A model generated the notes under the pieces. It was not told the origin of the DNA, searched no databases, and saw only the letters and a list, made by a program, of their open reading frames with translations. Both the position numbers and the translations under genes were made by a program. A stretch of 64,000 nucleotides of DNA from an uncultured bacterium (GTDB lineage Bacteria > Hydrothermota > UBA3072): the NCBI GenBank assembly GCA_964418485.1, contig CAYQMH010000004.1, positions 2,173 through 66,172 of the forward strand. The letters run 5' to 3'. How positions within the stretch are numbered: position 1 is the first letter of the stretch; each line of letters begins with the position of its first letter. This document shows, one piece after another, positions 24,661 through 62,702 of the stretch.

Positions 24661-24696
24661 AAAGTCAAGACCATACAGCTTTGAATTGAAAGAAAG

Positions 24697-33852: not shown

Positions 33853-33990
33853 GCCACAGAGACACAGAGGACACAGAGGAACAACAAAGAACTATAGTTT
33901 GTTAAAACCCATCCCCCCAAAAAATTGGAAACAACAAATCACACAAATAGCACAAATCTTTTTTACTATTTAACTATTTTTTTAATTTAT
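33853..33990. repeat. Composite intergenic repeat (CACAGAG array - CCCATCCCCCC core - CACAAAT array - TTAACTATTT)
   Basis: gccacagagacacagaggacacagagg..gttaaaacccatccccccaaaaaattgg..atcacacaaatagcacaaatc. Confidence 0.85.
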
Positions 33991-34047: not shown

Positions 34048-34363
34048 TAGCGGAAGGGCGGGTAGTCGCGCTCTCTTTATGAGGGTGAGGAAAGTCCGGA
34101 CATTGCGGGTAAGAGAGGCTCCCTTAGGGAGGCACCGTAAGGTGACGGAAAGTGCCACAGAAAATATACCGCCTTGCTTTTGCAGGGTAAGGGTGAAAAG
34201 GCGAGGTAAGAGCTCACCGGACTTCTGGCGACAGGAGTCGCATGGTAAACCCCCTTTAATGCAAGACAAACAGGGTAGGTCCACTTGCCCGGACCGATAA
34301 TCCCGGGTAGTTGCAAAGATCAATGACTATCTATAACAGAATCCGGCTTATAGCCCTTCCGTT
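34048..34363 (+). ncRNA. rnpB: RNase P RNA, bacterial type A (compact)
   Basis: P4 'GAGGAAAGTCCGGAC'; 'ACAGAAAATATACCGCC'; 'GGGTAAGGGTGAAAAGGCGAGGTAAGAGCTCACC'; 3' 'ACAGAATCCGGCTTATAG'; P1 GGAAGGGC/GCCCTTCC closes the molecule. Confidence 0.9.
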
Positions 34364-34375
34364 TACTTAAAAAAT

Positions 34376-34510
34376 TGAACCACAGAGGACACAGAGAGAA
34401 ATAAACACACTGAGAACACAGAGGAAAAGGTGTTGTTTTAAAACCTCCCACCACCCCAAATTATTATTACACAAAGCCGCAAAGAACACAAAGCCCAACA
34501 CCACCCTTCT
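34376..34510. repeat. Composite intergenic repeat (CACAGAG array - CCCACCACCCC - AAATTATT - CACAAAG array)
   Basis: accacagaggacacagagag..gttttaaaacctcccaccaccccaaattattattacacaaagccgcaaagaacacaaagccc. Confidence 0.85.
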
Positions 34511-40644: not shown

Positions 40645-40825
40645 ACCACAGAGTACACGGGGAAGAAATTAGAAAAATTGAAAAATGGGAAAATAGTAAA
40701 ATGGTAACAAAAAACTTTAAACTAAATACTAATGTTTAAAAATTAACCACAAAGGTCACAAAGATTTTCTTTCTGTTTTTACTATTCAACTATTCAACAA
40801 TTTAACCATTCAACTTAGTCTATTG
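40645..40825. repeat. Intergenic repeat (CACAGAG, CACAAAG units + TTCAACTA tandem)
   Basis: taccacagagtacac..aaccacaaaggtcacaaag..ctattcaactattcaacaatttaaccattcaactt. Confidence 0.75.
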
Positions 40826-42357: not shown

Positions 42358-42648
42358 CTAATTTGACCATGGGGTGCGGCCACCACCGCCTCTTCCGAAA
42401 TTTTCAGTACGAGGTCGAGCTTTAGTTACTTTCAGTTCTTTTCCTTTGAGTTCTTTGCCGTTTAAACCGGCAATTGCTGCTTCTGCTTCGCTTTCCTTTG
42501 GCATTTCAACAAATCCAAAGCCTCTATTTTCGCCTGTGTACCTGTCTTTGATTAGTCTAACAGAAGTTAGCTCACCGTAAGATGAAAATTCTTTATTCAT
42601 TTCTTCTTCGGTCAATTGTGATGAAATGTTACCTACATATATATTCAT
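42358..42648 (-). CDS. RRM-domain RNA-binding protein with Gly-rich C-terminus
   Basis: RNP-2 'NIYVGNI', RNP-1 'RGFGFVEM'; GRGGGGR tail; start chosen at MNIYVGN. Confidence 0.85.
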   Translation of the reverse strand: MNIYVGNISSQLTEEEMNKEFSSYGELTSVRLIKDRYTGENRGFGFVEMPKESEAEAAIAGLNGKELKGKELKVTKARPRTENFGRGGGGRTPWSN

Positions 42649-42867
42649 ATTACCTCCTTTTAGGTTTGAATATTTACATGTTTTCGTAAATGTAATTAAA
42701 TCCGAATACAATCCTGCAGAAAAAGTATTGAGATGTCTAACCGGCAAAACCAGAATGGAGATAAAAAAGTATTAACAATTATATTCCGAACGATCTTGAA
42801 GGTTCCATAACCTACATTTACTGCGTCTATAATACTTGATTTTCAAGAAAAGTCAAGGGGGGGATTC

Positions 42868-43015
42868 ACCACAGAGGTCACAGAGCAAAACAAAACACAC
42901 AGAGAGTACAGAGAAAAAAAGTATTTTTTTGTTTTTAAAACCCACTTCCCCGCACAAAATTATTCTCACGCAAAGTCACAGAGAACACAAAGAAAAAAAT
43001 ATTTGTGTTTTTAAA
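42868..43015. repeat. Composite intergenic repeat (CACAGAG array - CCCACTTCCCC - AAAATTATT - CACAGAG/CACAAAG)
   Basis: caccacagaggtcacagagc..acacagagagtacagag..gtttttaaaacccacttccccgcacaaaattattctcacgcaaagtcacagagaacacaaag. Confidence 0.85.
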
Positions 43016-43192
43016 ATTCGTTCCCATTGACTTGATTCTTTAAATCCGTTATTATTATGAAAAAAAAGTTGATCAAATAACGAAAAAGAAAATCTGTTGA
43101 ATAAAGTGAATGATGGCAAAATCTTTGTGATAAAATTGGAGAGTTAAATTAAAGGATTTTTTTTACTGATAGAAAAATTAAAAGAAATATTA

Positions 43193-44473
43193 ATGGCTTC
43201 ATTATTTTTTACGCTGTTTTTCACTCAAAGTTGTTTTGCTTTGGAAGATAGTAATATTTATGATAAATATTCTTTTATATCAGGAAATGAACAACTATCT
43301 GAAAGAGTACTTATGCTTGACTTATCAAACCCTTTAAAAAATTATGAGGCAAATTCAAATTTGTTCCTTTCTATAAATCAATTATCAGGAAGAGCTAATG
43401 ACTTTTTAGGAATATGGCTTAATGGTGATAATTATAGATGGTCCAGAATCTTGCTGTTATGTGGTTCATGGTGGCTATCCGTCGGTGAATCATATTATTC
43501 TCACGAAATTGCGCATTTATTCAGGCCAAGAAGGAATGGATTAAAATGCTACGTTGATATTGATATGAATGATTGGTGGTCTCATTTATGGCCTAGATAT
43601 AAAGCATTAGTTTCAAGTTATCGAGAAATGACTGATGAGGATTTTCTTGGAGTGGTGGTTGAGGGTTTAAATCAGTGGGAATTTAATTCTTTTAATAAAT
43701 GGTCTTTAAGCGTAAAACAGAATCAACTATCTCTTAATGATGTTGTTTACTTTTTTATAGAAAAATTATGGGATATGGAATACATATTACATGTCGGATT
43801 TGACGATTTTACCCCCAGATGGAAACTAGATTATATTGCTTTTCTTGGGTATTGTGATGTTAGAAATCTGCATAGTGATATTGATGTTTATACGATATAT
43901 CTTTCTAATTTTAATGATATTGAATTGAAAAAAACCGAATATCTGGGTCAAACAATGCTGGCAGATTTGCTTTCATTTCATACCTGGGAAAGTATTTTTT
44001 TGATTATAAAGTACTTGTTTTCCGGAAATAGATACTCCAGCCCCTGGAAAATTGAATTTAGCGATAATTTAAAAGTTTTACCGCCAATAATTAATATTTA
44101 CGCAACTTCTAAGGGAGGGTTCTTTAATTCAACATCATTAATAAAGGTAGGGAAAAGTCATAATATATTTTTATCTTTTGGTTTAGATGCTGATGGGGTT
44201 GGAGGTGGCGAGGTGGATTGCTTTAGACTGGGTGTGAATTATCAAGACTTAAATATAGCAAAATTTTCATTTGCTCCTTTTTTCAATATTAATACTACAA
44301 GGAATTTACAATATAAGGGTGCTTCAATTGGAATGTGTATAAACTTCAGAATCAATGAAAATATATTATTTAGAACAAAGTACGAATACAATGATAATGA
44401 TATAATAGAAAATGTAGTAAAAAATAAAGACGAAGGCTCCCTAATCACATTGGGTTTTGCCGTAAGAATTTGA
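43193..44473 (+). CDS. Hypothetical secreted protein with HExxH motif
   Basis: 426 aa; N-terminal signal peptide; 'YYSHEIAHLFRP' at ~aa 100; W/Y-rich; no family recognised. Confidence 0.5.
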   Translation: MASLFFTLFFTQSCFALEDSNIYDKYSFISGNEQLSERVLMLDLSNPLKNYEANSNLFLSINQLSGRANDFLGIWLNGDNYRWSRILLLCGSWWLSVGESYYSHEIAHLFRPRRNGLKCYVDIDMNDWWSHLWPRYKALVSSYREMTDEDFLGVVVEGLNQWEFNSFNKWSLSVKQNQLSLNDVVYFFIEKLWDMEYILHVGFDDFTPRWKLDYIAFLGYCDVRNLHSDIDVYTIYLSNFNDIELKKTEYLGQTMLADLLSFHTWESIFLIIKYLFSGNRYSSPWKIEFSDNLKVLPPIINIYATSKGGFFNSTSLIKVGKSHNIFLSFGLDADGVGGGEVDCFRLGVNYQDLNIAKFSFAPFFNINTTRNLQYKGASIGMCINFRINENILFRTKYEYNDNDIIENVVKNKDEGSLITLGFAVRI

Positions 44474-44477
44474 TGAA

Positions 44478-44529
44478 CAAACAAAGCACACAAAGACACA
44501 AAGAAAATAGGACGCAGATGAACGCAGAT
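44478..44529. repeat. CACAAAG array + 23-nt motif copy 3 (44507-44529)
   Basis: caaacaaagcacacaaagacacaaagaaaataggacgcagatgaacgcagat. Confidence 0.85.
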
Positions 44530-44610
44530 TTAAAAGAATTTTTTGTTGTTTTATACCTCTGACTTACTAATTCTTAATACTCAAATTATATAAAATCTTT
44601 TCACATTTCA

Positions 44611-44679
44611 ATGCCTGACCCTGTTGATATGACCCTGTTGATACTGTTGATATTCACAATGCCTGACCCTGTTGATATT
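44611..44679 (+). repeat. Direct repeats of (ATGCCT)GACCCTGTTGATAT (3-4 copies)
   Basis: atgcctgaccctgttgatat gaccctgttgatac tgttgatatt cacaatgcctgaccctgttgatatt. Confidence 0.8.
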
Positions 44680-44709
44680 AAAAATAAGTCCCCTACTTTT
44701 ATTACTTCA

Positions 44710-45378
44710 TCATCTCCTTTGACGACACTTTTTGTGTTCGCGCGCATTTTCTAGAGTAAAAATTAAGTCCTCACCATCACCAATAGAGGGGATATATTGA
44801 TACGTAGTGCGTGATTTCCAGAAGTGTTCCTCTATATCGCCGAGAAGTTTTTGAATCTTTTCCAGAATATTCTCAATATAAGTCCGACTAATACCGGGTA
44901 GAGGGTCAGAGTGATATTGAAGTGTGGTTTCAAGATCTTCATGTGCAAGAAGGCGATTCCGTACCTTTCGTAATGGCTCATAATAGCCCTTAAGTTCCTT
45001 CAATTCTGACTGCCATTTGTCGAATAGAATCGTATCTATGGAGGGTTTTAACTTATCTATTAAATAATCCAAAGATACATTTTTTTTACCACGCGATTCT
45101 TTAGGATCCATGAATCGAGAGATTGCTAGTATTACATCGTGGCGCATAATACGATCCAATAATCCAAAGAATGAAGATGCAGCCCAGTTTAAAAGACCTA
45201 CACGTTCAGGAGAAGTCCCAAATAGGGATTTATAGTTTTGCCAATTCAAGTGTAAGTAAGCAACATTGGTCAAAAGCTCATAAAATAACTCTCCCGTTCC
45301 CTTTGGAAAGAGTGCACGCGCTTTTTCTCGAACCTCTTCCGGAGTCTGATGATTCTTCATTTTCTTATTCGTATTCAT
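44710..45378 (-). CDS. Putative HEPN-domain protein (Abi-like; RNxxxAH motif)
   Basis: 222 aa; 'LRKVRNRLLAHEDL' fits the HEPN Rx4-6H (RN..AH) motif near the C-terminal third; no other family recognised. Confidence 0.4.
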   Translation of the reverse strand: MNTNKKMKNHQTPEEVREKARALFPKGTGELFYELLTNVAYLHLNWQNYKSLFGTSPERVGLLNWAASSFFGLLDRIMRHDVILAISRFMDPKESRGKKNVSLDYLIDKLKPSIDTILFDKWQSELKELKGYYEPLRKVRNRLLAHEDLETTLQYHSDPLPGISRTYIENILEKIQKLLGDIEEHFWKSRTTYQYIPSIGDGEDLIFTLENAREHKKCRQRR

Positions 45379-45519
45379 TTTATAATAAAAATTTAAAAAA
45401 GCTTACTGATAAGTCAATAGACTATGTCCGGGAACGCTGTGACTTGAGAATCGCAAGACGTGAGTCAAAAAAATGTCGTAGCAGTTTAATATAGATTTTA
45501 AACTCAATTCTGAAAACCC

Positions 45520-45549
45520 TTGACATCCTACCCACTTTTGAGGTATATT
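45520..45549 (+). promoter_or_regulatory. Sigma70-like promoter (TTGACA-N18-TATATT) for the Cys-rich/DUF559 nuclease gene
   Basis: cTTGACAtcctacccacttttgaggTATATTgtg in the divergent intergenic region. Confidence 0.4.
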
Positions 45550-45615
45550 GTGAAGGAGGAAGCAACAATTTAAAGTTCAAGAAGTGGTCACTATCGTTCT
45601 TGTTGTTAAGAAAAG

Positions 45616-46614
45616 ATGAAAGATATTGCTTGTAAAGATAACACAATAGCTGAAGAGAAGGGACTGCCCTATCCAATAGTATTATATCCCAAGCATTATG
45701 GAGTATTTATAGGCTTTAAAAGGAATCTTACAGATTCACAAGTTTTTTTCTGCTCATGTTTTAAAGAAGCAATAGTGAATTACATAAAGCATCAACTGGA
45801 AAATCCTAGTATTGGAACATATGGTAATGGTCAAAAAAAATTCTTTCTGGATTATGGTAAGTTTCCTACGAACTTTATTCAGCAGATAAAAAATTATCCA
45901 CAAAACGATAAAATTGTACAAATGTTTCACTTTGAAAACAAACTATGTCACGGATGTAATAATTCTACGCCTTCATATAGATATTGTCATGAAATGTATG
46001 GCTCGGTTTTCAAACAAAATTATGGATGGTACATTAATAAACAAGCCTATGAATGGGGTATTATAGGAAATGAAGTTAATTTTAAATTATGCCCGGATGA
46101 AATCATAGACTTATTAAAAATAGAGCGTAAAGAGTACTTTAATTTGTTCCAAGAACTCATATCAAGTAAAAAGTTAGAAAAAGCGCTTGAATTACAGAGT
46201 AAATTTAATAAACAACAAAGAAAAATCTGGAATGTTATAGAAAATGAAGTTAGAGGAAGATTTGGACATAAGAAAATAGGGGAAGCATGGACTAGTGAAA
46301 CAATCCTTTATTACATAATTGAAAAACTTTATCCGGAAAGAACTATATTTCGTCATTTTCGCCCAGAATTTCTGGAAGGATTAGAAATAGATATATTTAT
46401 AAAAGAATTTAATTTAGGCATCGAATATCAGGGAATACAACATTATAAACCAGTAAAACATTGGGGAGGAGAAGCTGCGTTAAAAAAATTAAAAGAGAGA
46501 GATGATAAAAAGAAAAAAATTTGCGAATCACAAAATATAAATTTGATTTACTTTAAGTACGATGAGGATCTAAGTGAAGAATTTGTTTCGAATAGACTTA
46601 AACAATATATCTAA
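45616..46614 (+). CDS. Cys-rich N-terminal domain fused to a DUF559/Vsr-like PD-(D/E)xK endonuclease domain
   Basis: C-terminal 'FRHFRPEFLEGLEIDIFIKEFNLGIEYQGIQHY...ERDDKKKKICESQNINLIYFKYDE' matches the DUF559 pattern (..vDF....l.IE.DG.qH...D..RD..L...G..vlRf); N-terminal Cys/His clusters 'FFCSCF', 'CHGCNNS', 'YCHEMYG', 'CPDE'. Confidence 0.55.
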   Translation: MKDIACKDNTIAEEKGLPYPIVLYPKHYGVFIGFKRNLTDSQVFFCSCFKEAIVNYIKHQLENPSIGTYGNGQKKFFLDYGKFPTNFIQQIKNYPQNDKIVQMFHFENKLCHGCNNSTPSYRYCHEMYGSVFKQNYGWYINKQAYEWGIIGNEVNFKLCPDEIIDLLKIERKEYFNLFQELISSKKLEKALELQSKFNKQQRKIWNVIENEVRGRFGHKKIGEAWTSETILYYIIEKLYPERTIFRHFRPEFLEGLEIDIFIKEFNLGIEYQGIQHYKPVKHWGGEAALKKLKERDDKKKKICESQNINLIYFKYDEDLSEEFVSNRLKQYI

Positions 46615-46659
46615 CAACATAAAATCCCTGCTAATCGTGTCCTTATCCTGTCTTGTATT

Positions 46660-46822
46660 AGGGTTATGGGATTGGTTTCGAACAACACAAATATATTTTT
46701 TTCTTCGTGCCTTAGTATCTTTGTGTGAGATTGATTTTGGGTCGGGGGTTGGGTATTAACGAAAAAAATCTCTGTGTGCTCTGTGTGTTTGGTTTTTCTC
46801 TGTGCTCTCTGTGGTTCAATCT
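46660..46822. repeat. Composite intergenic repeat, reverse orientation (CTTCGTGCCTTAG - CTTTGTG - GGGTCGGGGGTTGGG - CTCTGTG array)
   Basis: cttcgtgccttagtatctttgtgtgag..ttgggtcgggggttgggtatt..ctctgtgtgctctgtgtg..ttctctgtgctctctgtgg. Confidence 0.85.
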
Positions 46823-46889
46823 TTTTTTCTATGGTTTTTATACCAGGGCTATACTTGACTTTCTTTCGGGTTTGCCTTATTATTTTTAT

Positions 46890-47237
46890 ATGAGAACATT
46901 AGAAGAAATAAAAGTATTAAGGAAAAACGAAAAGGAAGCATTGAGTGAATTAAAATCTCAACTTAAACAGAGAATTCCGGATGCGGAAATTATATTATAT
47001 GGTTCAAAAGCAAGAGGAGATTCTGAAGAGTTGTCGGATATAGATATATTGATTCTTATAGATAAAAAGGTAGATAGAAAACTAAAAGAAAAAATCGTTG
47101 ACATAAGGTATGATATCGAATTGAAATATGATGTTGTCTTTGGACTTGTTATTGAAAATAAGGATTTCTGGGATTCTTCGTTAGCTAACGCAATGCCTTT
47201 CCATAAGAATATAGAGAGAGAAGGTGTTCTTCTTTGA
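46890..47237 (+). CDS. Minimal nucleotidyltransferase (MNT) family protein, TA-antitoxin-like
   Basis: 'ILYGSKARGDSEELSDIDILILID' = GSxARG..(S)D[IV]D NTase signature; start chosen at MRTLEE. Confidence 0.8.
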   Translation: MRTLEEIKVLRKNEKEALSELKSQLKQRIPDAEIILYGSKARGDSEELSDIDILILIDKKVDRKLKEKIVDIRYDIELKYDVVFGLVIENKDFWDSSLANAMPFHKNIEREGVLL

Positions 47238-47641
47238 AAAAAGAGTTTATAGATCTCACAAAATACAGATTAGAGAAAGCGCAGAATACACTATCAGACG
47301 CAAAGAAATATATCGAAGAAGCTACTCCTGAATCAACAGTAAACAGAATTTATTATGCAATGTTTTACGCGGTTAATGCTTTACTCATAGCAAATGGTTT
47401 ATCATCTACAAAACATTCCGGAGTTAGAGCTATTTTCAATAAAGAATTTATAAACGAGGGACTAGTAAAAAAAGAGCTCGGCAAATTTTACTCCGAGATG
47501 TTTGACAATCGGCAGGAAGGCGATTACAGAGATTTTGTAAAATTCGAAAAGGAGGACGTGAAGTTTTGGCTTGAGAAAGCCACTGAGTTTGTAGACGTAG
47601 TCGAAAGTCTGACCAACAAAGCGATTAAAGAAAGTAAGTAA
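47234..47641 (+). CDS. HEPN-domain protein (PF05168-type), partner of the MNT
   Basis: 135 aa; 'VNRIYYAMFYAVNALLIANGL..KHSGV' typical HEPN helical core; overlaps the MNT stop. Confidence 0.75.
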   Translation: MKKEFIDLTKYRLEKAQNTLSDAKKYIEEATPESTVNRIYYAMFYAVNALLIANGLSSTKHSGVRAIFNKEFINEGLVKKELGKFYSEMFDNRQEGDYRDFVKFEKEDVKFWLEKATEFVDVVESLTNKAIKESK

Positions 47642-47709
47642 AATATTTTAGAAACCACGATTACAGCATATCATAAAAATAAACTTTTAACTTAAAAAAC
47701 AAATAAAAA

Positions 47710-47905
47710 ACTTTGTGTCTTTGTGCCTTAGTGGCAAAATTAGGATTTCGGATTTAGGGGATGGGATTTAGTAAAAAAAGATTTGTGTCATTCGTGTTAT
47801 TTGTTGTTTCTAATCTTGGGAGGTGGGTGTTAAACAAATTATGATTCTTTGTTGTTTCTCTGTGTTCTCTGTGTGTTTAGTTCTTCCTCTGTGGTCTCTG
47901 TGGTT
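47710..47905. repeat. Composite intergenic repeat, reverse orientation; internal segment homologous to 53540-53650
   Basis: ctttgtgtctttgtgccttagtggc..attaggatttcggatttaggggatgggatttag..gatttgtgtcattcgtgttatttgttgtttc..gggaggtgggtg..ttctctgtgttctctgtgtg..ctctgtggtctctgtgg. Confidence 0.85.
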
Positions 47906-52349: not shown

Positions 52350-52580
52350 CGACCCACAACCTTAAAACAACAAAAATATTCTCACACAAAGACACAAAGA
52401 ACACAAAGCCCTTCCACACAACCCTTATATTATGTTTGTTTTAACTTCCCAACCGCCTAACTTTCTAACGTCCTAACTAAAATAATTACCCCAGAGAACA
52501 CAGAGGAAAAAAACTCACAGAGACCACAGAGTTTTTTGTTGTTTTTTTTAACTGCTAACTACTCTCTATTTACTATTTAA
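52350..52580. repeat. Composite intergenic repeat (CACAAAG array - CCCTTCCACACAACCC - CTAACT units - CACAGAG array - TTAACTGCTAACT)
   Basis: ctcacacaaagacacaaagaacacaaagcccttccacacaaccc..ctaactttctaacgtcctaact..ccccagagaacacagagg..ctcacagagaccacagag..ttaactgctaactac. Confidence 0.85.
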
Positions 52581-52581
52581 A

Positions 52582-53373
52582 TTATCGTCCTATCTCTTTC
52601 TGAACCAGATGTTTATTGTCCCGCACCCAGTTATAATACTCTGTTCTTTTAAGTTTGGAAGCTGCATCCTTATCCAAAACAACATTTACATAACTATGCA
52701 GCTGTAAAGCGCTGGCCGTTATTTGACTTGTTACGGGTCCTTCGATGAATTTGGCACAGACGTCAGCTTTCTTTTTTCCGTTTGCTATAAGAAGTGTTTT
52801 TTTAGCTTCCAAGATAGTTCCTATCCCTATAGTAATAGCAAAACGAGGTACATCTTTCATGTTATCGAAGAAACGAGCATTATCTTCTATTGTTTGTTTA
52901 TATAATGCCTTTATTCGCGTGCGGCTGGCAAAGGAAGATCCCGGTTCATTAAAAGCAATATGTCCATCAGCTCCAATACCAAGTATTTGAAGATCTATAC
53001 CGCCTACTTTTTTAATTTGTACTTCATACCAGGTACAGAATTGTTCAGGGTCTTTTATATTTCCCTGTGGTATAAAAACATTTTCCGGGTTTATATTAAT
53101 ATGTTTAAACAGGTTTTCCCACATAAAATAGTTATAACTGTTTTTGTGTAACGGAGCCAGCCCCAGGTATTCATCTAAATTGAAAGATTTTACTTTAGAG
53201 AAATCCAATCCTTCTTCTTTATGTATTCTTACGAGTTCTTTGTAGGTGCCAATAGGCGTATCTCCAGTTGCCAGGCCTAATACAAGATCATGTTTTTTTC
53301 TGATTTCTTCAGCAATTATTTGAGCAGATACTCTGCTCATTTCATCGTAATTAGAAGCAATAGTTATTTCCAT
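52582..53373 (-). CDS. nagB: Glucosamine-6-phosphate deaminase
   Basis: 'LGLATGDTP', 'ILGIGADGHIAFNEPGSS'. Confidence 0.85.
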   Translation of the reverse strand: MEITIASNYDEMSRVSAQIIAEEIRKKHDLVLGLATGDTPIGTYKELVRIHKEEGLDFSKVKSFNLDEYLGLAPLHKNSYNYFMWENLFKHININPENVFIPQGNIKDPEQFCTWYEVQIKKVGGIDLQILGIGADGHIAFNEPGSSFASRTRIKALYKQTIEDNARFFDNMKDVPRFAITIGIGTILEAKKTLLIANGKKKADVCAKFIEGPVTSQITASALQLHSYVNVVLDKDAASKLKRTEYYNWVRDNKHLVQKEIGR

Positions 53374-53460
53374 AATATTACCTACCCCCTTTTATTTTAT
53401 TTTGAACTTTTGGTTTTTAAAAATAATTATTCTTTTCGGTTTGTCAACAGCAGTATAATA

Positions 53461-53690
53461 GTTAGTAGAAAGTAGAGAGTAGTGAGTAGTAAAAAAACAA
53501 AAAATCTTGTGACAATCTGTGTAATCTTGTGGCAATTTTTAGGGATTAGGATTTTGGGTTTGGGATTTAGAAAAAACAAACAAGAAATATTTGTGTGATT
53601 TGTGCTATTCGTTGTTCCTTGTTTTTATTTTTGAAATTTGATTTGTAGTTTTGTATTTTGATATTTGATTTTTACATTTTTTTGAAGCCT
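53461..53690. repeat. Intergenic repeat (GTAGWGA tandem; GGATTAGGATTTTGGGTTTGGGATTTAG; TTGTGTGATTTGTGCTATTCGTTGTTCC)
   Basis: gttagtagaaagtagagagtagtgagtag..ttagggattaggattttgggtttgggatttag..atttgtgtgatttgtgctattcgttgttcc..tttgatttgtagttttgtattttgatatttgattttt. Confidence 0.8.
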
Positions 53691-53725
53691 TGCGGATGTT
53701 GAGAAATAATCTTAATTTATAATCT

Positions 53726-55477
53726 ATGGTTGAGATTTCGCTAAAAGACATACCGGAACTTTCCGGAGTTTATCATTTCCGTGATGAGGAGAAAATACTT
53801 TATATAGGTAAAGCAAAGAATTTGAAAAAAAGAATCAATAGTTATTTTACCCGTAAAAATTCCATAAAAGAAAGTAAAATATTATATGAAGCCAAATTTT
53901 TAGATTATACGGCTACATCTAATGAATTGGAAGCTCTTATATTGGAAGAAAATGAAATAAAAGAACACCAGCCAAAATATAACGTGAGATTAAAGGATGA
54001 TAAAAGATATCCATATATTAAGATAACTATAAAGGATGAATATCCGAGGGTCTTTTATACCCGAAAAATCGAAGATGACGGGTCTCTTTTTTTTGGTCCC
54101 TTTGCAGATGTAAAGGCAGTTAAAAGAGCGCTTAAAACGCTTATAAGCGTTTTTCCGGTGAGGACATGTAAAGGAAAAAATTTACCCTATAAAGTTTGCC
54201 TTCAGTATCATATTAATAGATGTTTGGGACCATGTATAGGAAAAATAGAAAAAGAAGAATATAGAGAGATGATCGATGAAATAGTCGATTTTCTCAAGGG
54301 TAAAACAAAGAAGCTTGAAAAAATTATTAATAATAAAATGAGAGAATCAGCCGCGAAATTGAATTTTGAGATGGCTGCTGTTTATAGAAACCAGATAATG
54401 AGTCTCAGGGATCTCGCAAGGAAGCAGAGAATAGTGTTAGAGGATAAAAAATCCAGAGATGTGATTGGAATCAGCGTCAAATCCGGGAAGGCTTGTGTTT
54501 TCGTTTTTCAGATAAGAGAAGGAAAGATGGTTAATACTGAGAGATACATACTTCGTTCGAGTGAAGAGGTACCGGTGAAAGAATATCTCAAGAGGTTTCT
54601 CCCCTGGAAATATCTGAATATATCCTATATTCCTAAAGAGATTCTAATTCCGGTAGAAATAGAAGATAAAAATTTGCTGGAAAATCTTTTTTTGTGTAGA
54701 ATTAAAGTACCAAGGAGAGGGGATTTGAAAGGACTAAAGGAAATGGCGATTAAAAATGCGAAACTTGAATTGGAAAGGGAACTTGCTCGTCCGGTGACCG
54801 GCTTAAATGATTCTTTAGGTGAGCTTCAGAAACTTCTTATGCTCGAGAGTCTTCCGGTGAGAATAGAAGGATTCGATATTTCTAATATTAGCGGTTCCGA
54901 TTCGGTGGGTTCTTGCGTTGTGTTTGTAAATGGTTTTCCCGCAAAGGAAAAATACAGACGTTTTAAAATCAAAAACGTTGAAGGAATTAACGATCCTGCC
55001 ATGATAGGTGAAATTGTCGGTAGAAGGATTAAAAAATTGATAGAAGAGAAAGATTTACCCGATTTGATTTTGATCGACGGAGGAAAAACACAGTTAAATG
55101 GAGCTTTGAAGGCTATGGGTAAAGTTGCACGCTTAAAAATACCTGTTATAGCGTTGGCTAAGAGAGCAGAGGAAGTACATTTGCCGAGCGGAGAAATTAT
55201 TTCTTTGCCTTTAAGCTCTAAGGCTCTGAAACTCTTAATGAGAATACGCAATGAGGCTCACTCATTTGCTCTTAGTTATCATAAAAAACTCAGAAGAAAA
55301 AAACTTTCTCTTTCGGAATTGGATGAGATTGAAGGTATAGGCTATAAGCGTAAAATTGCTTTGATTCAGCATTTTGGTTCAAAAGACAGGATACTTACGG
55401 CATCTAAAGAAGAAATTAGAGAAGTTACGGGAGTTGGAGATAAATTGGCTGATATTGTTTATAATTCTCTTCATTAA
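53726..55477 (+). CDS. uvrC: Excinuclease ABC subunit C
   Basis: GIY-YIG 'GVYHFRDEEKILYIGKAKNLKKRINSYF'; UvrBC-interaction, RNase H-like and C-terminal HhH domains. Confidence 0.9.
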   Translation: MVEISLKDIPELSGVYHFRDEEKILYIGKAKNLKKRINSYFTRKNSIKESKILYEAKFLDYTATSNELEALILEENEIKEHQPKYNVRLKDDKRYPYIKITIKDEYPRVFYTRKIEDDGSLFFGPFADVKAVKRALKTLISVFPVRTCKGKNLPYKVCLQYHINRCLGPCIGKIEKEEYREMIDEIVDFLKGKTKKLEKIINNKMRESAAKLNFEMAAVYRNQIMSLRDLARKQRIVLEDKKSRDVIGISVKSGKACVFVFQIREGKMVNTERYILRSSEEVPVKEYLKRFLPWKYLNISYIPKEILIPVEIEDKNLLENLFLCRIKVPRRGDLKGLKEMAIKNAKLELERELARPVTGLNDSLGELQKLLMLESLPVRIEGFDISNISGSDSVGSCVVFVNGFPAKEKYRRFKIKNVEGINDPAMIGEIVGRRIKKLIEEKDLPDLILIDGGKTQLNGALKAMGKVARLKIPVIALAKRAEEVHLPSGEIISLPLSSKALKLLMRIRNEAHSFALSYHKKLRRKKLSLSELDEIEGIGYKRKIALIQHFGSKDRILTASKEEIREVTGVGDKLADIVYNSLH

Positions 55478-55494
55478 CGGGATTATTCTTTGAT

Positions 55495-58299
55495 TTGATA
55501 TTATTACTGCTTTCCATATCATCAGAAGTATTAATTATAGAGTCACCGGATACGTCCGAAATTGCTCTCGGTTATCCCTTTGTCATTAAAAACTCTGATA
55601 GTTTGTGGTGTGGAGAAGAGCTTTTGTCCCGCGATTCGTCATATATAATAGATTACAAAAGAGGTGTTTTAAGAATTAAGAAGGATTGTTCTCTACCTCT
55701 GAGATTTAAGTTCTTACATCTGGATTTTATGTTGAATGAAAGCTACTCAAGGTGGGCTCCGGATACTTCCAGGTCTTTACCTGCTGGGATTGTAGAAGAG
55801 TCTAGTTGGCAGGATGGCGATAAACTTATAATAAGTGGGAATAAAGGTTTATTTGTAGATGTAAGAGCGAACAGGACTGATATAAGCCAGAGTTTATGGA
55901 TGAGGATAGGGGGTAGCGCCGGGCAGTTCGATGTTTCCGGAGTTCTTTCCGATGAAAATATTCCTAAAGGTAACGTGGTTTCGCAGAATTTGCGGGAAAT
56001 AGATGAGATTTTTATCGAAGCAGTTTCCGATGATATATCTATCAGAATGGGGGATATTGTAACTACTGAGGAGGAAGTAGATAAAAAATTGCTTGGGCTT
56101 TCTTTCGCCTGGAAAGACTTATCCGGAGTAGCGGGGATTTCTAAGGCTAAATATGGGAAAATTACGTTTAAAACAGTCGAAGACAAACAGGGTCCCTATA
56201 AAATTAATCCGGAAGAAGGAATAAGTGGTGTTTCAATAGTAAGAGGTTCAGAGCAAGTTTGGCTTAATGGCAAGCTGCTGGCGAGGGGAATAGAAAAAGA
56301 TTATGTAATTAATTACCTGGAAAACACTCTCACTTTTAATTCCTCTGTTTTTCTTGATAATGAGTCGGTGGTTCTTGTTCTTTTTCAATATAGTATTTAC
56401 GGAGAAAGTAATATGTTCTATGAAACCGCGTTTGAGAGTGATGATTATTCTTTTTCTTTCCGTCGCGAAGAAGATTTCTCGGAAAAAGATTTAATCGAAT
56501 CCTATCCCGATTCAGGTTTTGGATACAGATATAATTCTACATATGTTGGAGAGGGAAATGGTGATTACCAGCTGTTGGATTCCATTTTTGTTTATCAGGG
56601 TTACGAAAAAGGCTCTTACGAAGTGTATTTTGAGTGGATCGGAGAGGGAAACGGTGAATATGAGTATGTGGATTCATTACATTACTTTCTCTGGACAGGA
56701 GATGGTCCGTTTTCGCCTAAAAGGAAAGTTCCTTTAGGGGAAGAAGATAACTTGTTTTCATTAGGCTTAAACAAGAGTTTAAAAAATTTTGATATATCGG
56801 GGAGATTAAAAGCAAGAAGAATTAGAATTCCAGTAGGAGGAGAGGGAAAAGATGGTCTAAATGCCAGTTTTAAGTCCAGGTATAAGCCATACGATTTTTT
56901 AAGTTTCTTTTTTGATTATTCCGGGAAAACTTCGAATTTTGTTGTTAGGGAATGGGAAGGAGAGAAAGATTTATTGAAAACCTGGGAAATGGCTAATTAC
57001 CCTTTAGATTTTTTGGAAAGTGGTATAGAATTTGTGCCCAATTCGAGAATGGAATGTTCCTATGTTTACGGGAAAGCGGATACTCTCCGTAAGGATAAAA
57101 TAAATTTTAAAATCTCTCCTTTATTTTTTTATTGGGATAATATTAGAGGGAAGCGGCTGGATTTAAAAGGAGGATTTTTATTTTCCGGCTATGAGATTTC
57201 ATATAGAGATTTAAGTAGAGGTGAAGATTACAGAAGAGAGTTTTTTGCCGGTAGCTCATATTTAGGTCTTTTATATGGATTAGAGGGAGGAAGTCGAGGT
57301 GATACTGCAAGGGTATATGTCGGAAAGACAAATCTGAAATATAAAAATCTCTCTTTAGTTGCGTCGCATATTTACAGGATGAATTTAATTTCAGGGCAGT
57401 CAGAAAGGATTACCAATGGGAGCTTTGATATGAATTTAAACTTAAATTCTTTTTATTTGAGAAGTAAGTTTGATGTTTCTAAGAAAAGAGCGAGTGTCTG
57501 GGAAAGATATTATCAGAAGGTGAACTCCGGGGGAGGAGATTATTCCTTTGATTCGACAGCAAATGTTTATTATGAGAATCCTTATGGAGATTATGTGGAG
57601 AGAGTTGTATATACAGGGGAGGAGAGGGATTCGAGAGAATATTCGGCAAATATTTCCGTCCGCTCCGAGCGAATTGTTTTGCTGAACGGGTATATAAATT
57701 CGACTTATAGTCCGAATTTGATGTCTCGAAATGATGGTTCGATAAGTCTTAAATTTCCGGAAAAGAGTAAAAACAGAATCTTTTTCAGAAATAGTTTTAA
57801 ATACAGTAGCGGAGGGACTTTTTGGAGGGGGGCAGACCGTAATTATACAAAGGTTGATTTTGGCTGGGAGAATAGTGCTAAAGGATATAAAGAACTTGGG
57901 GGTACAAGGGAGTGGAGCAGTGAAGAGGACAAATGGGGAGGTTTTTTAAGTTTTTGGAATGATGAAGGAATTGAAATAAAACTCGAGGAAATCTTAACCA
58001 CGGGAGAAGATACGCTTATTTCTTCGATTTTGGAACTGGGTTATAGACTTTTTGGAGAAAGGAAAAGCGGTTTATTTCAGGTAACTCTGGGTTACAACTA
58101 TTATCCGGATGGTAGTGTTAATTCCTATAGGATGAACGATCTTTATCCTCCCGGATTTTTTTATGATTTTACCTCTTCTGTAACATTCGATTTAACCGAG
58201 ATGGTTCATCTGGTAACAAATGCGACTATTCATAAACTGAGTGGCGGGGAAATTTATTATACAGGTAGAATAGGAATCACTGCCGATTTTTCTCCGTAA
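55495..58299 (+). CDS. Large hypothetical protein (934 aa), G/Y/S/N/D/E-rich with internal GEGNG(D/E)Y repeats; probably secreted/outer membrane
   Basis: Short hydrophobic N-terminus; tandem 'YVGEGNGDYQ'/'WIGEGNGEYEY'; beta-rich composition; no family recognised. Confidence 0.45.
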   Translation: MILLLLSISSEVLIIESPDTSEIALGYPFVIKNSDSLWCGEELLSRDSSYIIDYKRGVLRIKKDCSLPLRFKFLHLDFMLNESYSRWAPDTSRSLPAGIVEESSWQDGDKLIISGNKGLFVDVRANRTDISQSLWMRIGGSAGQFDVSGVLSDENIPKGNVVSQNLREIDEIFIEAVSDDISIRMGDIVTTEEEVDKKLLGLSFAWKDLSGVAGISKAKYGKITFKTVEDKQGPYKINPEEGISGVSIVRGSEQVWLNGKLLARGIEKDYVINYLENTLTFNSSVFLDNESVVLVLFQYSIYGESNMFYETAFESDDYSFSFRREEDFSEKDLIESYPDSGFGYRYNSTYVGEGNGDYQLLDSIFVYQGYEKGSYEVYFEWIGEGNGEYEYVDSLHYFLWTGDGPFSPKRKVPLGEEDNLFSLGLNKSLKNFDISGRLKARRIRIPVGGEGKDGLNASFKSRYKPYDFLSFFFDYSGKTSNFVVREWEGEKDLLKTWEMANYPLDFLESGIEFVPNSRMECSYVYGKADTLRKDKINFKISPLFFYWDNIRGKRLDLKGGFLFSGYEISYRDLSRGEDYRREFFAGSSYLGLLYGLEGGSRGDTARVYVGKTNLKYKNLSLVASHIYRMNLISGQSERITNGSFDMNLNLNSFYLRSKFDVSKKRASVWERYYQKVNSGGGDYSFDSTANVYYENPYGDYVERVVYTGEERDSREYSANISVRSERIVLLNGYINSTYSPNLMSRNDGSISLKFPEKSKNRIFFRNSFKYSSGGTFWRGADRNYTKVDFGWENSAKGYKELGGTREWSSEEDKWGGFLSFWNDEGIEIKLEEILTTGEDTLISSILELGYRLFGERKSGLFQVTLGYNYYPDGSVNSYRMNDLYPPGFFYDFTSSVTFDLTEMVHLVTNATIHKLSGGEIYYTGRIGITADFSP

Positions 58300-58340
58300 C
58301 TGCCCCTTGACTTATAGCTTTACTTTTATAGAATAAATTT

Positions 58341-59492
58341 ATGAATATTATTTTGTTTGAGGACAAAAAAGTAATTAATTTCTATCCTATTTCCAGGTTG
58401 CGTACGATCGATGAGATTAGAACAGGAATGTGGACACAGAAGGAGAGAGCCTTTTTAAAATTTAAAACAAAGCCATTAAGTTATTCTTTAAGAGAATATT
58501 ACGGCGATGAATTTAAAGTGAAGGGAGATGCGCTTTTTCTGAATTCGAGATTAAAAGATTTCGATTTTTTTAATAATTTGGAAAATAATACATGTGTTAT
58601 CAATAAAGATGGGGAAGTTCTCGGTTATAAAAGTAATAAGATTATTGAAGGGGATAAGTTCGATGGATTTAAAGTGGTCGTAGAAGAAATTCCGATGTAT
58701 AATTTTATATGGGATGTTATAGCCGATTTGCCCGAAAGATTAACGGCGGATTTAGTCGGTGATCCGTCTTTAGGCAAAATATCCAGTCCGGTTGGTGACT
58801 TTGTTCATATCAGAAACAAAAAGAATGTTTATATAGGTAATAACGTTGAGCTTGGTGAGGCCGTTGTCCTCGATGCCCGGCATGCTCCTGTTTGGATTGA
58901 TGACGGTGCGGTTGTAGAAAGCCATTGTTGCATTATCGGGCCTGCTTATATAGGCAAAAAGTCAAAAGTGAAGCCGGCTAGTCTTTTGGATATTGTTTCA
59001 ATTGGTGATGTTGTTAAAATTTCCGGCGAGATTGAGGGAACTATTTTTCAAGGTTATTCAAATAAACAACATTTAGGGTTCCTTGGGCATGCTTTTGTCG
59101 CCGAGTGGGTCAATTTGGGTGCCGGGACAACTAATTCTGATTTAAAAAATAATTATAGTAAAGTAAGCGTAATTTTAGAGGGAAAACGTTACGATACTGG
59201 TATGCAATTTCTTGGTACTATAATTGGAGATCACTCAAAGGCTGCAATTAATACTACTTTTAATACTGGTACAATTGTCGAACCATTTTGTAATATATTT
59301 GGAAGGGGATACCCTCCTAAATATGTACCTCCTTTTAGTTGGTGGGGAGACGACATCGAAGAATATAAGCTGGATAAGGCTATTGAGACAGCGACTATGG
59401 TTATGAAAAGAAGGGGTGTAGATTTGAGTGAGCATTATAGAAAAAAAATTGAGCAGCTTTTCATAGAAGCTAAAGACATCAGAAAAAAATAA
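58341..59492 (+). CDS. Putative sugar nucleotidyltransferase-like protein with left-handed beta-helix (hexapeptide) repeats (TIGR03991-like)
   Basis: N-terminus 'MNIILFEDKKVINFYPISRLRTIDEIRTG' resembles FCB-group 'putative sugar nucleotidyl transferase'; hexapeptide repeats IGNNVELGEAVV.. in the C-terminal half. Confidence 0.5.
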   Translation: MNIILFEDKKVINFYPISRLRTIDEIRTGMWTQKERAFLKFKTKPLSYSLREYYGDEFKVKGDALFLNSRLKDFDFFNNLENNTCVINKDGEVLGYKSNKIIEGDKFDGFKVVVEEIPMYNFIWDVIADLPERLTADLVGDPSLGKISSPVGDFVHIRNKKNVYIGNNVELGEAVVLDARHAPVWIDDGAVVESHCCIIGPAYIGKKSKVKPASLLDIVSIGDVVKISGEIEGTIFQGYSNKQHLGFLGHAFVAEWVNLGAGTTNSDLKNNYSKVSVILEGKRYDTGMQFLGTIIGDHSKAAINTTFNTGTIVEPFCNIFGRGYPPKYVPPFSWWGDDIEEYKLDKAIETATMVMKRRGVDLSEHYRKKIEQLFIEAKDIRKK

Positions 59493-59560
59493 ATTAATAT
59501 TAGGTTTTTCCCTAATTCCACTATTGACTTTTTCTCGTTTCTTCTTATAATAGTTATTAA

Positions 59561-60112
59561 ATGGGAAAAATGGAAAAATTTCATAAAATCGTTACAGTGG
59601 AGTTGCTTTCGACGATTGATCATAAATTGAGAGGTGTGCAGCAATTTATTGTAGCGCTCCGCGGACTAATCGAAGAAGATGTTCTTAATGATTTGGCCGA
59701 AGAAGTTGGTGAGTTGCAGGCTCTTTATGAACCTTTTCTAAAACTCCGAGATTTAGATCTGCAAGAAGTTGATTTGGGAAAGTTTTTAGGGGATAATTAT
59801 AATATGCAATCAGGGGCTTCCTGTATTGTCAAGGTGGATAAAGAAAAGCTCGATTTTGTTCTTGATTTTTTTAATGAATTTTCAGAAGGAAATTATGAAT
59901 TATCTGTTAAGCCTGCTGGCAAGGGTTGTATTGTTAGTTTGGTTTCTCCTTCGTTTTCCGAATTATCTATTGATTATTTTGACGAACTTTCTGGTGAGGT
60001 TGATCGCCTTCCGTTTTTTGCTATTAAGAAAGTACTTGGAAGAATGGGTGCCGAATTTTCTATTGAAGGAGAAGAAGTATCTATTGAATTTTTGCGTCCA
60101 GGTGAAATATAA
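59561..60112 (+). CDS. Hypothetical protein (183 aa)
   Basis: Acidic, no family recognised; the preceding region has no repeat element. Confidence 0.35.
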   Translation: MGKMEKFHKIVTVELLSTIDHKLRGVQQFIVALRGLIEEDVLNDLAEEVGELQALYEPFLKLRDLDLQEVDLGKFLGDNYNMQSGASCIVKVDKEKLDFVLDFFNEFSEGNYELSVKPAGKGCIVSLVSPSFSELSIDYFDELSGEVDRLPFFAIKKVLGRMGAEFSIEGEEVSIEFLRPGEI

Positions 60113-60170
60113 GCCTGGATTTTTACTATTTCCCGGGATTTAAGATTCGTTTCTGTTTAGTGCTGGTTTG

Positions 60171-62702
60171 TTAATCTTCAGTTTCTTTTTTTAAATCGTA
60201 GAGAAAATTATGTGCTTCTTTTGGTGTCATATTATCGGGATTGATATTTTTGATTTTGTTTAGTAAGATGTTTTCTGTTTGAAAGAGTGAAGTTTGTCTT
60301 GTTTTTGGGGGATGCTTTCTCGTTACCCGGTCATCATCTCTTAAATCCGCAAGTAAATCTTTTGCACGCTCAATTACGTTATCAGGTAACCCCGCAAGTT
60401 TCGCAACTTCGATACCATAACTACGATCCGAAGAGCCCCTTTTTACGTTTCTTAAAAATATAACTTCGTCTTCGGTTTCTTTTACGGATACATTATAATT
60501 TGCTACTGTTTTATAATATTCTTCCAATTCAGTTAATTCATGATAGTGAGTCGCAAAAAGGACCATTGGTTTTTCGGGTATTGAGTTAAGATACTCAATT
60601 ACAGACCAGGCAATAGAAAGTCCATCGTAGGTACTGGTTCCTCTGCCGACCTCGTCTAAGAGGACGAGGCTTTTACTTGTAACGTTATTTAGTATGTTTG
60701 CAGTTTCATTCATCTCGGCAAGGAAGGTAGAAACGCCTCGAGCCAGATCATCAGACGCTCCGATACGAGTGAAAATACTATCTATTATTCCTATCTCAGC
60801 GTTTTTCGCCGGTACATAAGAGCCCATTTGTGCCATTATAGTTATTAAAGCTATCTGGCGTAAATAGGTCGATTTGCCGGCCATATTAGGTCCGGTTAGA
60901 ATTATTACACTTTCTTTTTCGTTTAAATCGACATTGTTTGGAATAAACTCTCCTTCTTTTAAGATTTTTTCTACTACAGGATGCCTTCCTTCTGAAATTT
61001 TAATACCCTTGTTAGTTGATATTTTAGGACGGGAGTAATTATGAGTTAAGGCAAGTTCGGTAAAGTTAGCTGTTATATCTATTACCGAAATACCAGAAGC
61101 CGTTTCCTCGAATTCATCAATATTTTGCTGTAGTTTTTTTATTAAATCTTCGAAGAGTTCTTTTTCGATTTCACTTTGTCTTTCCTCTGCCCTTAGTATT
61201 TTTGACTCGAAATCTTTTAATTCCTCGGTTATGAATCGCTCGGAATTAATAAGGGTTTGTTTTTTTATGTAATTTTCCGGAACCCCTTTAAGTTTTGCTT
61301 TGGTAATCTCAATATAGTATCCGAAAACAGAATTATAGCCAACTTTAAGTTTATCGATTCCTGTTTCCTTTCGCTGTTTTTCTTCATATTTTAAGACCCA
61401 ATTTTTACCTTCCGAGGCTATTTTTCTTATTTCGTCCAATTCTGGACTATATCCTTTTTTAAAAATACCCCCATCGCTTATTTTTACGGGAGGATCTTCT
61501 ACGATCGAATTTTCTATTAAATTTATTGTTTTTCTTAAGTCCTTTATTTTTTCGACTTGATTTTTAAAAATTGGTGAATTAAGGGAAGAAATTATTTTCT
61601 TAAGTTCCTCTGCGTTGGAAAGTGACATTTTCAAAGAAATTAAATCTCGTGGAGTTGCTCTACCAGTAGATATGCGTCCTGTAATACGCTGGATATCATA
61701 AATATCCTTGAGTTTTTCTTGGGTGTCTCTTAGGATATTTCTTTTAAAAATTAACTCTTCTATACCATCAAATCTTTTCTCTATTTCGAGTTTGTTAGTA
61801 GAGGGAAACAATAGCCATTTTTTCAGAAGGCGGCTTCCCATGGAGGTTAGGGTTTTATTTATTGTATCTAAAAGAGCTCCTTTTTGGTTTCCATTAATTT
61901 TAGTGATCAGTTCAAGATTTTTAATAGTTGCACCATCTAAGGACATGCCGTCTTTGGGATTAAAATGAGAGATTTTTTTTATGTGCTTTAATGTTGTTTT
62001 TTGATTTTCGGTTATGTAAGAAAGCAGTGCTCCAGCCGAACAGACTGCAGAAGAAGTTTCTGCGAGACCAAAAGAATCTATCTTTAAAATTCCAAAATGA
62101 TCTTTAATAAGTTCTAAAGCGAAATCTATGTCAAATCTATATGGTTCAATTTTTGTAATAGGAATAGTGTCCGGTAATTCTGTTTGCATTCCTTCAGGTA
62201 TAATTAATTCTTTAGGGGATAGCCGGTTTAATTCATCAATCAAATTTTTTATTTCGCCAGCTTGAAATTCTCCGGTAGAAATATCGGAAAAAGCAAAGCC
62301 ATAAGTATTTTCATCCTTTATAACAGCTGCGAGGTAATTGTTGTCTGTTTCTTTTAACAAAGAAGGTCTCATTACAGTTCCCGATGTTATAACTTCAACG
62401 ACTTCTCTTTCTACCAAACCTTTGGATGCTTTTGGATCTTCTATTTGTTCGCAAATTGCTACTTTTTTTCCTGAACGTACAAGTTTTTCGATATAAGAAT
62501 CAGCCGCTTTAATGGGGATACCCGCTAGTGGAACTCTGACGTCTTTACCCATGGGTTTAGATGTTAAAGTGATATTGAGAGTTTCGGAAGCGGTTTTTGC
62601 GTCTTCATAAAACGTTTCATAAAAATCGCCTATATGAAATAGTAAAACTGAATCTTGGTATTTTTTCTTGATTTTTAAGTACTGTTTAAGGATTGGAGTC
62701 AA
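60171..62702 (-). CDS. mutS: DNA mismatch repair protein MutS
   Basis: 843 aa; N-terminal mismatch-binding 'GDFYETF'; Walker A 'GPNMAGKST'; 'STF..E' signature. Confidence 0.95.
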   Translation of the reverse strand: MTPILKQYLKIKKKYQDSVLLFHIGDFYETFYEDAKTASETLNITLTSKPMGKDVRVPLAGIPIKAADSYIEKLVRSGKKVAICEQIEDPKASKGLVEREVVEVITSGTVMRPSLLKETDNNYLAAVIKDENTYGFAFSDISTGEFQAGEIKNLIDELNRLSPKELIIPEGMQTELPDTIPITKIEPYRFDIDFALELIKDHFGILKIDSFGLAETSSAVCSAGALLSYITENQKTTLKHIKKISHFNPKDGMSLDGATIKNLELITKINGNQKGALLDTINKTLTSMGSRLLKKWLLFPSTNKLEIEKRFDGIEELIFKRNILRDTQEKLKDIYDIQRITGRISTGRATPRDLISLKMSLSNAEELKKIISSLNSPIFKNQVEKIKDLRKTINLIENSIVEDPPVKISDGGIFKKGYSPELDEIRKIASEGKNWVLKYEEKQRKETGIDKLKVGYNSVFGYYIEITKAKLKGVPENYIKKQTLINSERFITEELKDFESKILRAEERQSEIEKELFEDLIKKLQQNIDEFEETASGISVIDITANFTELALTHNYSRPKISTNKGIKISEGRHPVVEKILKEGEFIPNNVDLNEKESVIILTGPNMAGKSTYLRQIALITIMAQMGSYVPAKNAEIGIIDSIFTRIGASDDLARGVSTFLAEMNETANILNNVTSKSLVLLDEVGRGTSTYDGLSIAWSVIEYLNSIPEKPMVLFATHYHELTELEEYYKTVANYNVSVKETEDEVIFLRNVKRGSSDRSYGIEVAKLAGLPDNVIERAKDLLADLRDDDRVTRKHPPKTRQTSLFQTENILLNKIKNINPDNMTPKEAHNFLYDLKKETED

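Follow-up and report, generated by a model that had tools for sequence, protein, structure and literature searches.

Background

AbiU2 is a family of HEPN proteins linked to abortive infection (PMC3710099, PMC3632139), and in canonical AbiU a member of this family is paired with a nuclease-like protein (PMC3632139, PMC13064643). The EDxHD nucleases, whose composite motif was described for I-Bth0305I, are Vsr-like homing endonucleases (PMC3239194). Here, we analysed a stretch of 64,000 nt from an uncultured bacterium of the Hydrothermota (lineage UBA3072; contig CAYQMH010000004.1, positions 2,173 to 66,172), hereafter the window, in which an earlier note, made from the sequence, had described positions 42748-47905 as a single defence-like island of about 5 kb. 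Our analysis centers on a two-gene cassette of 2,090 bp within this region (44685..46773), which encodes an AbiU2-family HEPN protein and, divergently, a nuclease with an EDxHD-type catalytic domain. The comparisons with related genomes indicate that this block is a discrete cassette, apparently exchanged among related lineages after their split, and that it has moved as a unit, having been placed at no fewer than three intergenic sites. The picture that we favour, with moderate confidence, is that of a recombinase-free conflict cassette, consisting of a predicted HEPN RNase and a predicted DNase of the EDxHD type that bears a new Cys/His domain.

The likeness to lactococcal AbiU is that, in both cases, a HEPN protein of the PF18734 family with the Rx4-6H motif is encoded beside a nuclease-like protein. 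By contrast, the partner here is a nuclease of the Vsr/EDxHD fold with a new Cys/His domain rather than an AbiU1 of the AIPR/ParB type, and Pfam detects no AIPR or ParB domain in the proteins of the region; the genes are in tandem in Lactococcus but divergent here; and the pairing seen here is limited to one lineage. Unlike the genes of the EDxHD homing endonucleases (I-Bth0305I and the phage Hef-type enzymes), the nuclease gene of the cassette is intergenic and free-standing in chromosomes, outside any intron or intein. In the encoded protein, a 160-amino acid (aa) Cys/His domain without a structural match replaces the NUMOD/HTH repeats, and the motif is IEYQG, not IEYDG. Finally, the cassette occupies three sites as opposed to a single homing site.

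A mobile two-gene cassette

The cassette comprises the AbiU2 gene, a spacer, the nuclease gene and a 3′ repeat element. It aligns as one block with 9081-11159 of the related locus L090 (91.1% identity) and with 8614-10682 of L202 (92.7% identity), the end-points in the window being the same in both alignments. In L090, the same divergent pair is located between ilvD and a DUF2784 gene, and the sequences flanking the cassette in the window and in L090 do not align. The third copy, in L202/L203, lies between the genes for UvrC and a NagB-like protein. Because the flanks of L202/L203 are syntenic with 52556-62036 of the window (~80% identity), the gap between the UvrC and NagB-like genes of the window (53374..53725) is an empty site, the counterpart of the site of cassette insertion in L202; this gap is also empty in five other relatives. 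Furthermore, the homology of L090 to L115, a contig without the block, starts at the right end of the block, within ~12 bp. The cassette is thus cleanly delimited, and with empty-site controls and three contexts at hand, it offers an experimental handle both on the function of this nuclease family and on the way in which recombinase-free cassettes of uncultured bacteria move among intergenic repeats.

The synonymous divergence (dS) between the window and L202 is 0.85-2.7 for four flanking genes, compared with 0.13 for the AbiU2 gene and 0.30 for the nuclease gene, that is, 3-8 times lower in the cassette, and this discordance suggests that the cassette was exchanged laterally. The ratios of nonsynonymous to synonymous divergence (dN/dS) are 0.20 for AbiU2 and 0.09 for the nuclease relative to L202 and 0.11-0.29 relative to L090, with 0.20-0.29 for the AbiU2 gene across the cassette copies, values indicating that both genes are under purifying selection. 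The earlier proposal that the genes at 44710 and 45616 are coupled is borne out to the extent that the two move as one 2.09-kb block, present in three chromosomal contexts.

The cassette includes no gene for a transposase, integrase or recombinase. Its 3′ end (46615..46773) is a copy of a CACAAAG-type dispersed repeat that travels with the block; this copy makes up the right-hand 115-160 bp, of which ~115 bp match intergenic repeats in the relatives L106, L108 and L109. The inverted repeats that flank the cassette have arms of 72-76% complementarity, are partly AT-rich, are built of dispersed repeats and differ in sequence from site to site, so that no transposon-like ends can be claimed. The repeat-free spacer between the two genes (45379..45615, 237 bp) contains promoter-like sites, TTGACA-18-TATATT on the plus strand at 45520-45549 before the nuclease gene (11 of 12 consensus positions) and another on the minus strand at 45417-45390 before AbiU2 (9 of 12); these are consensus matches only, with a total count not above chance.

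In the scenario that we favour, the cassette would have spread by lateral DNA transfer between relatives, with recombination at or beside dispersed repeats. It would represent conflict-type cargo, in which the HEPN protein supplies a toxin that cleaves RNA, for abortive infection or addiction, and DNA is cut by the nuclease, and the pairing of the two would be a recent, lineage-specific association. Several observations weigh against this picture. Neither terminal inverted repeats nor target duplications could be convincingly identified for the cassette, and about two relocations, in one lineage, would be enough to account for the three contexts. PADLOC v2.0.0 assigns 0 families to the 222-aa and 332-aa proteins of the cassette, and in Lactococcus, AbiUii, the AbiU2 protein, is dispensable for phage resistance and even lowered it (PMC13064643). 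In addition, distant homologs of the nuclease (30-34% identity; L066, L067, L069, L071 and L073) are embedded in a housekeeping-looking syntenic array, QueC, SIR2 deacetylase, the homolog, a 189-aa protein and GNAT, in Acidaminobacter, Fusibacter and Peptostreptococcaceae, which suggests that, in this clade, the nuclease homolog is stably and vertically inherited. A more ambitious version, in which the block is a novel type of recombinase-free mobile element whose EDxHD-type nuclease reads and cuts the dispersed repeats, or structures formed by them, via the Cys/His domain and homes to many intergenic sites, with the HEPN RNase as an addiction or defence payload that retains the element, appears to us highly improbable.

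The nuclease family

The nuclease gene (45616..46614, plus strand) encodes a 332-aa protein that consists of an N-terminal Cys/His-rich domain (residues 1-160), a helical linker and a C-terminal Vsr/EDxHD-type domain (residues ~220-330). The N-terminal domain has no structural match in the PDB and is not a NUMOD or helix-turn-helix (HTH) module; its invariant residues are C46, C48, C111, H112, C114 and C124. In the C-terminal half of the protein, E257, D259, E270, Q272, H276, D296 and K299 are invariant. This C-terminal domain adopts the restriction-endonuclease fold in its Vsr-type variant. A phage protein with the annotation "homing endonuclease EDxHD" shares 47% identity with residues 254-321, with D259, E270, H276 and D296 aligned with conserved residues of that protein, in agreement with the EDxHD motif of I-Bth0305I. 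Within the composite E...D...x...H...D pattern, D259, H276 and D296 are invariant, and the first catalytic glutamate would be E223 or E228, both invariant as well. Matches in PHROG are to families whose annotations name homing, HNH or intron-encoded nucleases. No significant match to the 332-aa protein was obtained with Pfam, NCBIfam or PADLOC v2.0.0, and its sequence matches in the PDB are at chance level (E >= 0.26). The DUF559 profile yields no match at E <= 0.1, the sole resemblance, to 3hrl, being at the level of the fold. Thus, from the previous description of a Cys/His-rich domain fused to a DUF559/Vsr-like nuclease, the Vsr-like fold stands, whereas DUF559 is not supported at the level of the sequence profile.

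The family is large and nameless, and Pfam, NCBIfam and PADLOC hold no model for it. A first search produced 403 hits, ~50% identical across bacteria of the Candidate Phyla Radiation, Nanoarchaeota and Bacteroidota; a scan of the GTDB representative genomes located 323 stretches with a match, distributed over bacteria, haloarchaea and methanogens; and a profile search collected 659 clusters (50% identity) at E <= 1e-30 and 4,888 at E <= 1e-10. The family spans Bacteria, Archaea and temperate phages, with full-length homologs in Clostridium tetani and SPbeta-like Staphylococcus phages. In Clostridium phage phiCT19406A (L118, 4992-6080), a full-length homolog (39% identity) is located directly upstream of the gene for the small terminase subunit, a site often held by packaging-associated HNH endonucleases. 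Some family members (P0169, P0196, P0230, P0167 and P0205) carry N-terminal extensions of 300-390 aa with TerB_N, ankyrin repeats or helix-hairpin-helix (HHH), and a TPR domain is also among the extra domains found in the family. Halosimplex salinum has two copies (L030, L031) on different scaffolds and with different neighbours, each of which recurs beside a family homolog in another haloarchaeal genus.

The catalytic domain, with its resemblance to I-Bth0305I, and the PHROG matches would fit a free-standing, homing endonuclease-like selfish gene that promotes the spread of the cassette, with AbiU2 as a hitch-hiker or addiction cargo. Such a role is also consistent with the patchy distribution of a family that is nevertheless ~50% identical across phyla, and with the 332-aa protein being the sole candidate mobility enzyme in the moved cassette. 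Classical homing, however, returns to one cognate site, not three, the intron or intein context and the NUMOD/HTH module are both missing, and the fusions to TerB_N, ankyrin, TPR and HHH, together with the stable synteny in one clade, sit poorly with a purely selfish gene. On balance, we regard this explanation as quite unlikely and prefer that of a recombinase-free conflict cassette.

The AbiU2-family protein and its relationship to the nuclease

The AbiU2 gene (44710..45378, minus strand) encodes a 222-aa predicted RNase that matches the PF18734 (HEPN_AbiU2) profile of Pfam over positions 6-179 of 193, with 54.7 bits against a cut-off of 26.8, and all 38 of its 38 homologs carry PF18734. In an alignment of 24 homologs, R140, H146 and D148 never vary and N141 hardly does, yielding the HEPN Rx4-6H motif in the form R140-x5-H146. 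The protein in which the earlier note had seen a HEPN-type RNxxxAH motif is now assigned to a family. The protein has no match in PADLOC v2.0.0, NCBIfam or the sequences of the PDB. The Pfam and PADLOC searches, among those that the earlier note had recommended, returned, besides PF18734, NTP_transf_2 and PF05168 for the neighbouring MNT-HEPN pair, with PADLOC blank for the 222-aa and 332-aa proteins.

The earlier note had interpreted the two genes as a two-component abortive-infection or defence module and had named, among the findings that would speak against it, a failure of the two families to co-occur elsewhere. We examined the neighbours of the nuclease homolog at 78 genome loci, and AbiU2 is present at one of these, which is a copy of this very block, and at 0 of the 77 others; nor does AbiU2 occur beside the nuclease homolog in any of 80 viral loci. 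When all 203 fetched loci, 173 of which contain the nuclease or its catalytic domain, were searched with the AbiU2 profile, the matches were confined to this lineage and to loci fetched for their AbiU2 gene. Conversely, such a nuclease is present in 0 of 4 other AbiU2 contexts, whose AbiU2 homologs are 33-68% identical; it is absent from three contexts with homologs of 57-68% identity and from those of two distant viral copies. The largest cluster of shared neighbours of the nuclease covers 7 of the 78 loci. Some homologs do have neighbours associated with defence or mobility, namely, PD-T4-1, PDC-S15, GajB, type IIG restriction-modification, DRT, integrases and resolvases. Thus, at the loci examined, the two families were found together only within this lineage, where the pair is coupled, and the family-wide evidence argues against a conserved two-component defence system; the interpretation of the earlier note is partly supported.

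A two-component defence system is possible, although unproven. The two proteins could constitute a true abortive-infection system, by analogy with AbiU, in which the DNase and RNase act jointly, or else one senses and the other kills. In all three contexts, the pair has travelled jointly and has kept a spacer that is conserved and free of repeats, both genes are under purifying selection, and lactococcal AbiU likewise combines a nuclease-like protein with an AbiU2 HEPN protein (PMC3632139, PMC13064643). Moreover, in relatives, the chromosomal slot holds defence and toxin-antitoxin genes, and PADLOC defence genes account for ~9 of the 140 immediate neighbours of nuclease homologs. Set against this are the lack of co-occurrence beyond the block, whether at genome loci, at viral loci or in the other AbiU2 contexts, the lack of a conserved neighbour in the nuclease family, and the divergent orientation of the genes, which form no operon; besides, any DNA between two dispersed repeats would co-move. 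We entertain such a system tentatively, as possible but on the unlikely side, and retain the recombinase-free conflict cassette with a lineage-specific pairing as the preferred reading. More generally, adjacent nuclease genes in a hot spot should not be called a "system" without family-wide co-occurrence.

The accessory slot and its other cargo

The region 42748-47905 is a mosaic of independent cassettes and not a single 5-kb element. It contains at least three cassettes: an orphan gene for a 426-aa protein, the AbiU2 and nuclease block, and an MNT-HEPN pair. The limits of the slot are the gene for a 387-aa protein on one side and a GAF-HD gene on the other, and its conserved anchors are TPR921-OMP387 and GAF-HD-RnfB-Lgt, respectively. 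Exact-sequence look-ups of the flanking proteins returned the same strain only, and relatives of the slot were found by a homology scan with the 387-aa protein. The TPR921-OMP387 pair is kept in 13 relatives, in which the copies of the 387-aa protein are 68-85% identical, and GAF-HD-RnfB-Lgt is also kept in those whose contig extends far enough. The cargo between the anchors differs from relative to relative and includes WG-repeat lipoproteins, an IS110 transposase, a DUF5615 PIN-like gene, an inverted copy of the MNT-HEPN pair (in L102), and a KAP NTPase (PDC-S20/PifA/QatA-like) with an HNH protein. The AbiU2, nuclease, 426-aa and RRM genes are found at the slot in none of the 13 relatives compared. 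Given that the cargo varies in this manner and that a relative of the 426-aa gene is located elsewhere, the flagged 5 kb is a hypervariable accessory slot in the chromosome, holding at least three unrelated cassettes. The accessory nature of the region is therefore as the earlier note had it, and the suggested comparison with related genomes finds the cargo not to be syntenic and these genes to be missing at this position; the open reading frames that it listed are all present as described. The claim of one island does not survive, given the independent cassettes in relatives and the copies at other sites.

That the region is, instead, ordinary chromosome, vertically inherited, with housekeeping genes and no insertion, would agree with its GC content, which at ~0.30-0.38 shows no clear contrast with the surroundings, but we give this possibility next to no credence because these genes are missing here in relatives, the cassette is present at other sites, and its dS is discordant with that of its flanks. 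The gene for the RRM protein (42358-42648), previously taken as a flank of the island, is itself absent from this position in L102, L106 and L114; it is the GAF-HD gene that serves as the conserved anchor on this side. In L107 (11455-15245), the same slot is occupied by genes for the KAP-family NTPase (PADLOC PDC-S20/PifA/QatA-like), a 512-aa protein and a PtuB-like HNH protein, a set that looks like a defence system.

The slot shares with defence islands and hot spots the combination of conserved flanks with strain-specific cargo, including toxin-antitoxin genes, the KAP NTPase with HNH, IS110 and PIN-like genes. It differs from them in having no integrase or tRNA anchor, in that short dispersed repeats of the genome itself separate the cassettes, and in that some of the cargo, namely, the WG-repeat lipoproteins, the RRM protein and the 426-aa orphan, is unrelated to defence. 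Rfam and tRNA scans gave no match inside the region, which is thus not a tRNA-anchored island, and ARAGORN detects no tRNA genes in the whole 64 kb. Elsewhere in the window are an RNase P RNA (34050-34366) with CACAGAG modules on both sides, a 5S rRNA gene (21871-21985) and a cobalamin riboswitch (24485-24666).

The MNT-HEPN pair (46890-47641) consists of genes for a 115-aa MNT protein, the predicted antitoxin (46890..47237, plus strand; NTP_transf_2, 1.4e-12; PADLOC PDC-S09, 1.1e-19), and a 135-aa classical HEPN protein, its predicted toxin partner (47234..47641, plus strand; PF05168, 5.9e-22), which overlap by 4 bp with MNT first. The MNT gene probably starts at the ATG at 46890, as in the JGI gene call, and not at 46725, the longer reading frame from 46725 passing through a repeat region. 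The order, with MNT first and overlapping HEPN, is the standard layout of MNT-HEPN toxin-antitoxin dyads, among which type VII HepT/MntA is the one that has been studied. However, the HEPN protein belongs to PF05168 rather than to DUF86/HepT and shows no visible Rx4-6H motif (RxxxxH is absent from the 135-aa sequence), the MNT protein scores 27.9 bits against the NCBIfam MntA model, below the cut-off of 60, and its only PADLOC match is PDC-S09, a candidate family. The pair is also independent of the AbiU2/nuclease cassette. Thus, the description of the pair as type VII-like is apt for its composition and dyad layout but not for MntA or for a DUF86-type HepT with Rx4H.

The 426-aa orphan (43193..44473, plus strand) is an independent accessory gene with 7 homologs in 5.8 billion proteins. 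The protein has a short hydrophobic, signal-like N-terminus and an invariant YYSHExxH, the HExxH being invariant in the 7 homologs, which corroborates the original description of a signal-peptide protein with this motif. The C-terminus ends in an aromatic or aliphatic residue (I or F), resembling an outer-membrane beta-signal. A relative with 82% identity sits elsewhere in the chromosome. No match was found in Pfam, NCBIfam, PADLOC, PHROG or the PDB. The 426-aa protein could be a rare surface protein of a metalloprotease-like kind.

Dispersed repeats

The CACAGAG motif occurs 33 times in the window, where 2.8 occurrences would be expected, and CACAAAG 28 times, for an expectation of 6.7. These repeats form 16 clusters over the whole 64 kb, 6 of which are inside 42.8-47.9 kb. 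They are present at every junction between cassettes and absent from the 237-bp gap between the genes at 44710 and 45616. Rather than marking the boundaries of an island, they belong to the ordinary intergenic repeats of the genome. The earlier note was right that the repeats are real, but their presence in every internal gap does not extend to that between the two cassette genes, and a boundary role is contradicted by the 10 of 16 clusters that lie outside the region.

Upstream of the 426-aa gene (42748..43192), CACAGAG/CACAAAG modules are located at 42865-43020. A module of four CACAGAG units on the minus strand (46769..46815) abuts the cassette end and is an inverted copy of 42868-42914 (47 nt, 85% complementary), and a composite CACAAAG/CACAGAG repeat region (47642..47905) reaches into the stop codon of the gene for the 387-aa protein. 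The spacer just outside the mobile block (44474..44684) carries short tandem motifs: CACAAAG twice at 44489-44503, GACGCAGATGAACGCAGAT at 44511-44529, and, at 44609-44678, two copies of CAATGCCTGACCCTGTTGATAT plus two degenerate ones. The direct repeats that had been reported in one gap are confirmed here as GACCCTGTTGATAT, with 4 copies (<=2 mismatches) solely at 44617-44678; the motif occurs in no other locus fetched, nor in the other two copies of the cassette. Two roles for GACCCTGTTGATAT, that of a type III antitoxin RNA and that of a component of the cassette, were considered and rejected, since the motif lies downstream of the HEPN gene, is not included in the shared block and is missing elsewhere.

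Window-wide, intergenic regions contain pairs of tandem motifs with a period of 9-14 nt, namely, CACAGAGnnCACAGAG, CACAAAGnnCACAAAG, GACGCAGATGAACGCAGAT and A-rich CAAA-type units, for example, at 11590-11632, 24930-24964, 33855-33878, 34381-34493, 40748-40763 and 52385-52531. Many repeat modules start exactly at a stop codon (TGAACCACAGAG or TAACCACAGAG), and the same types of repeats are present on related contigs.

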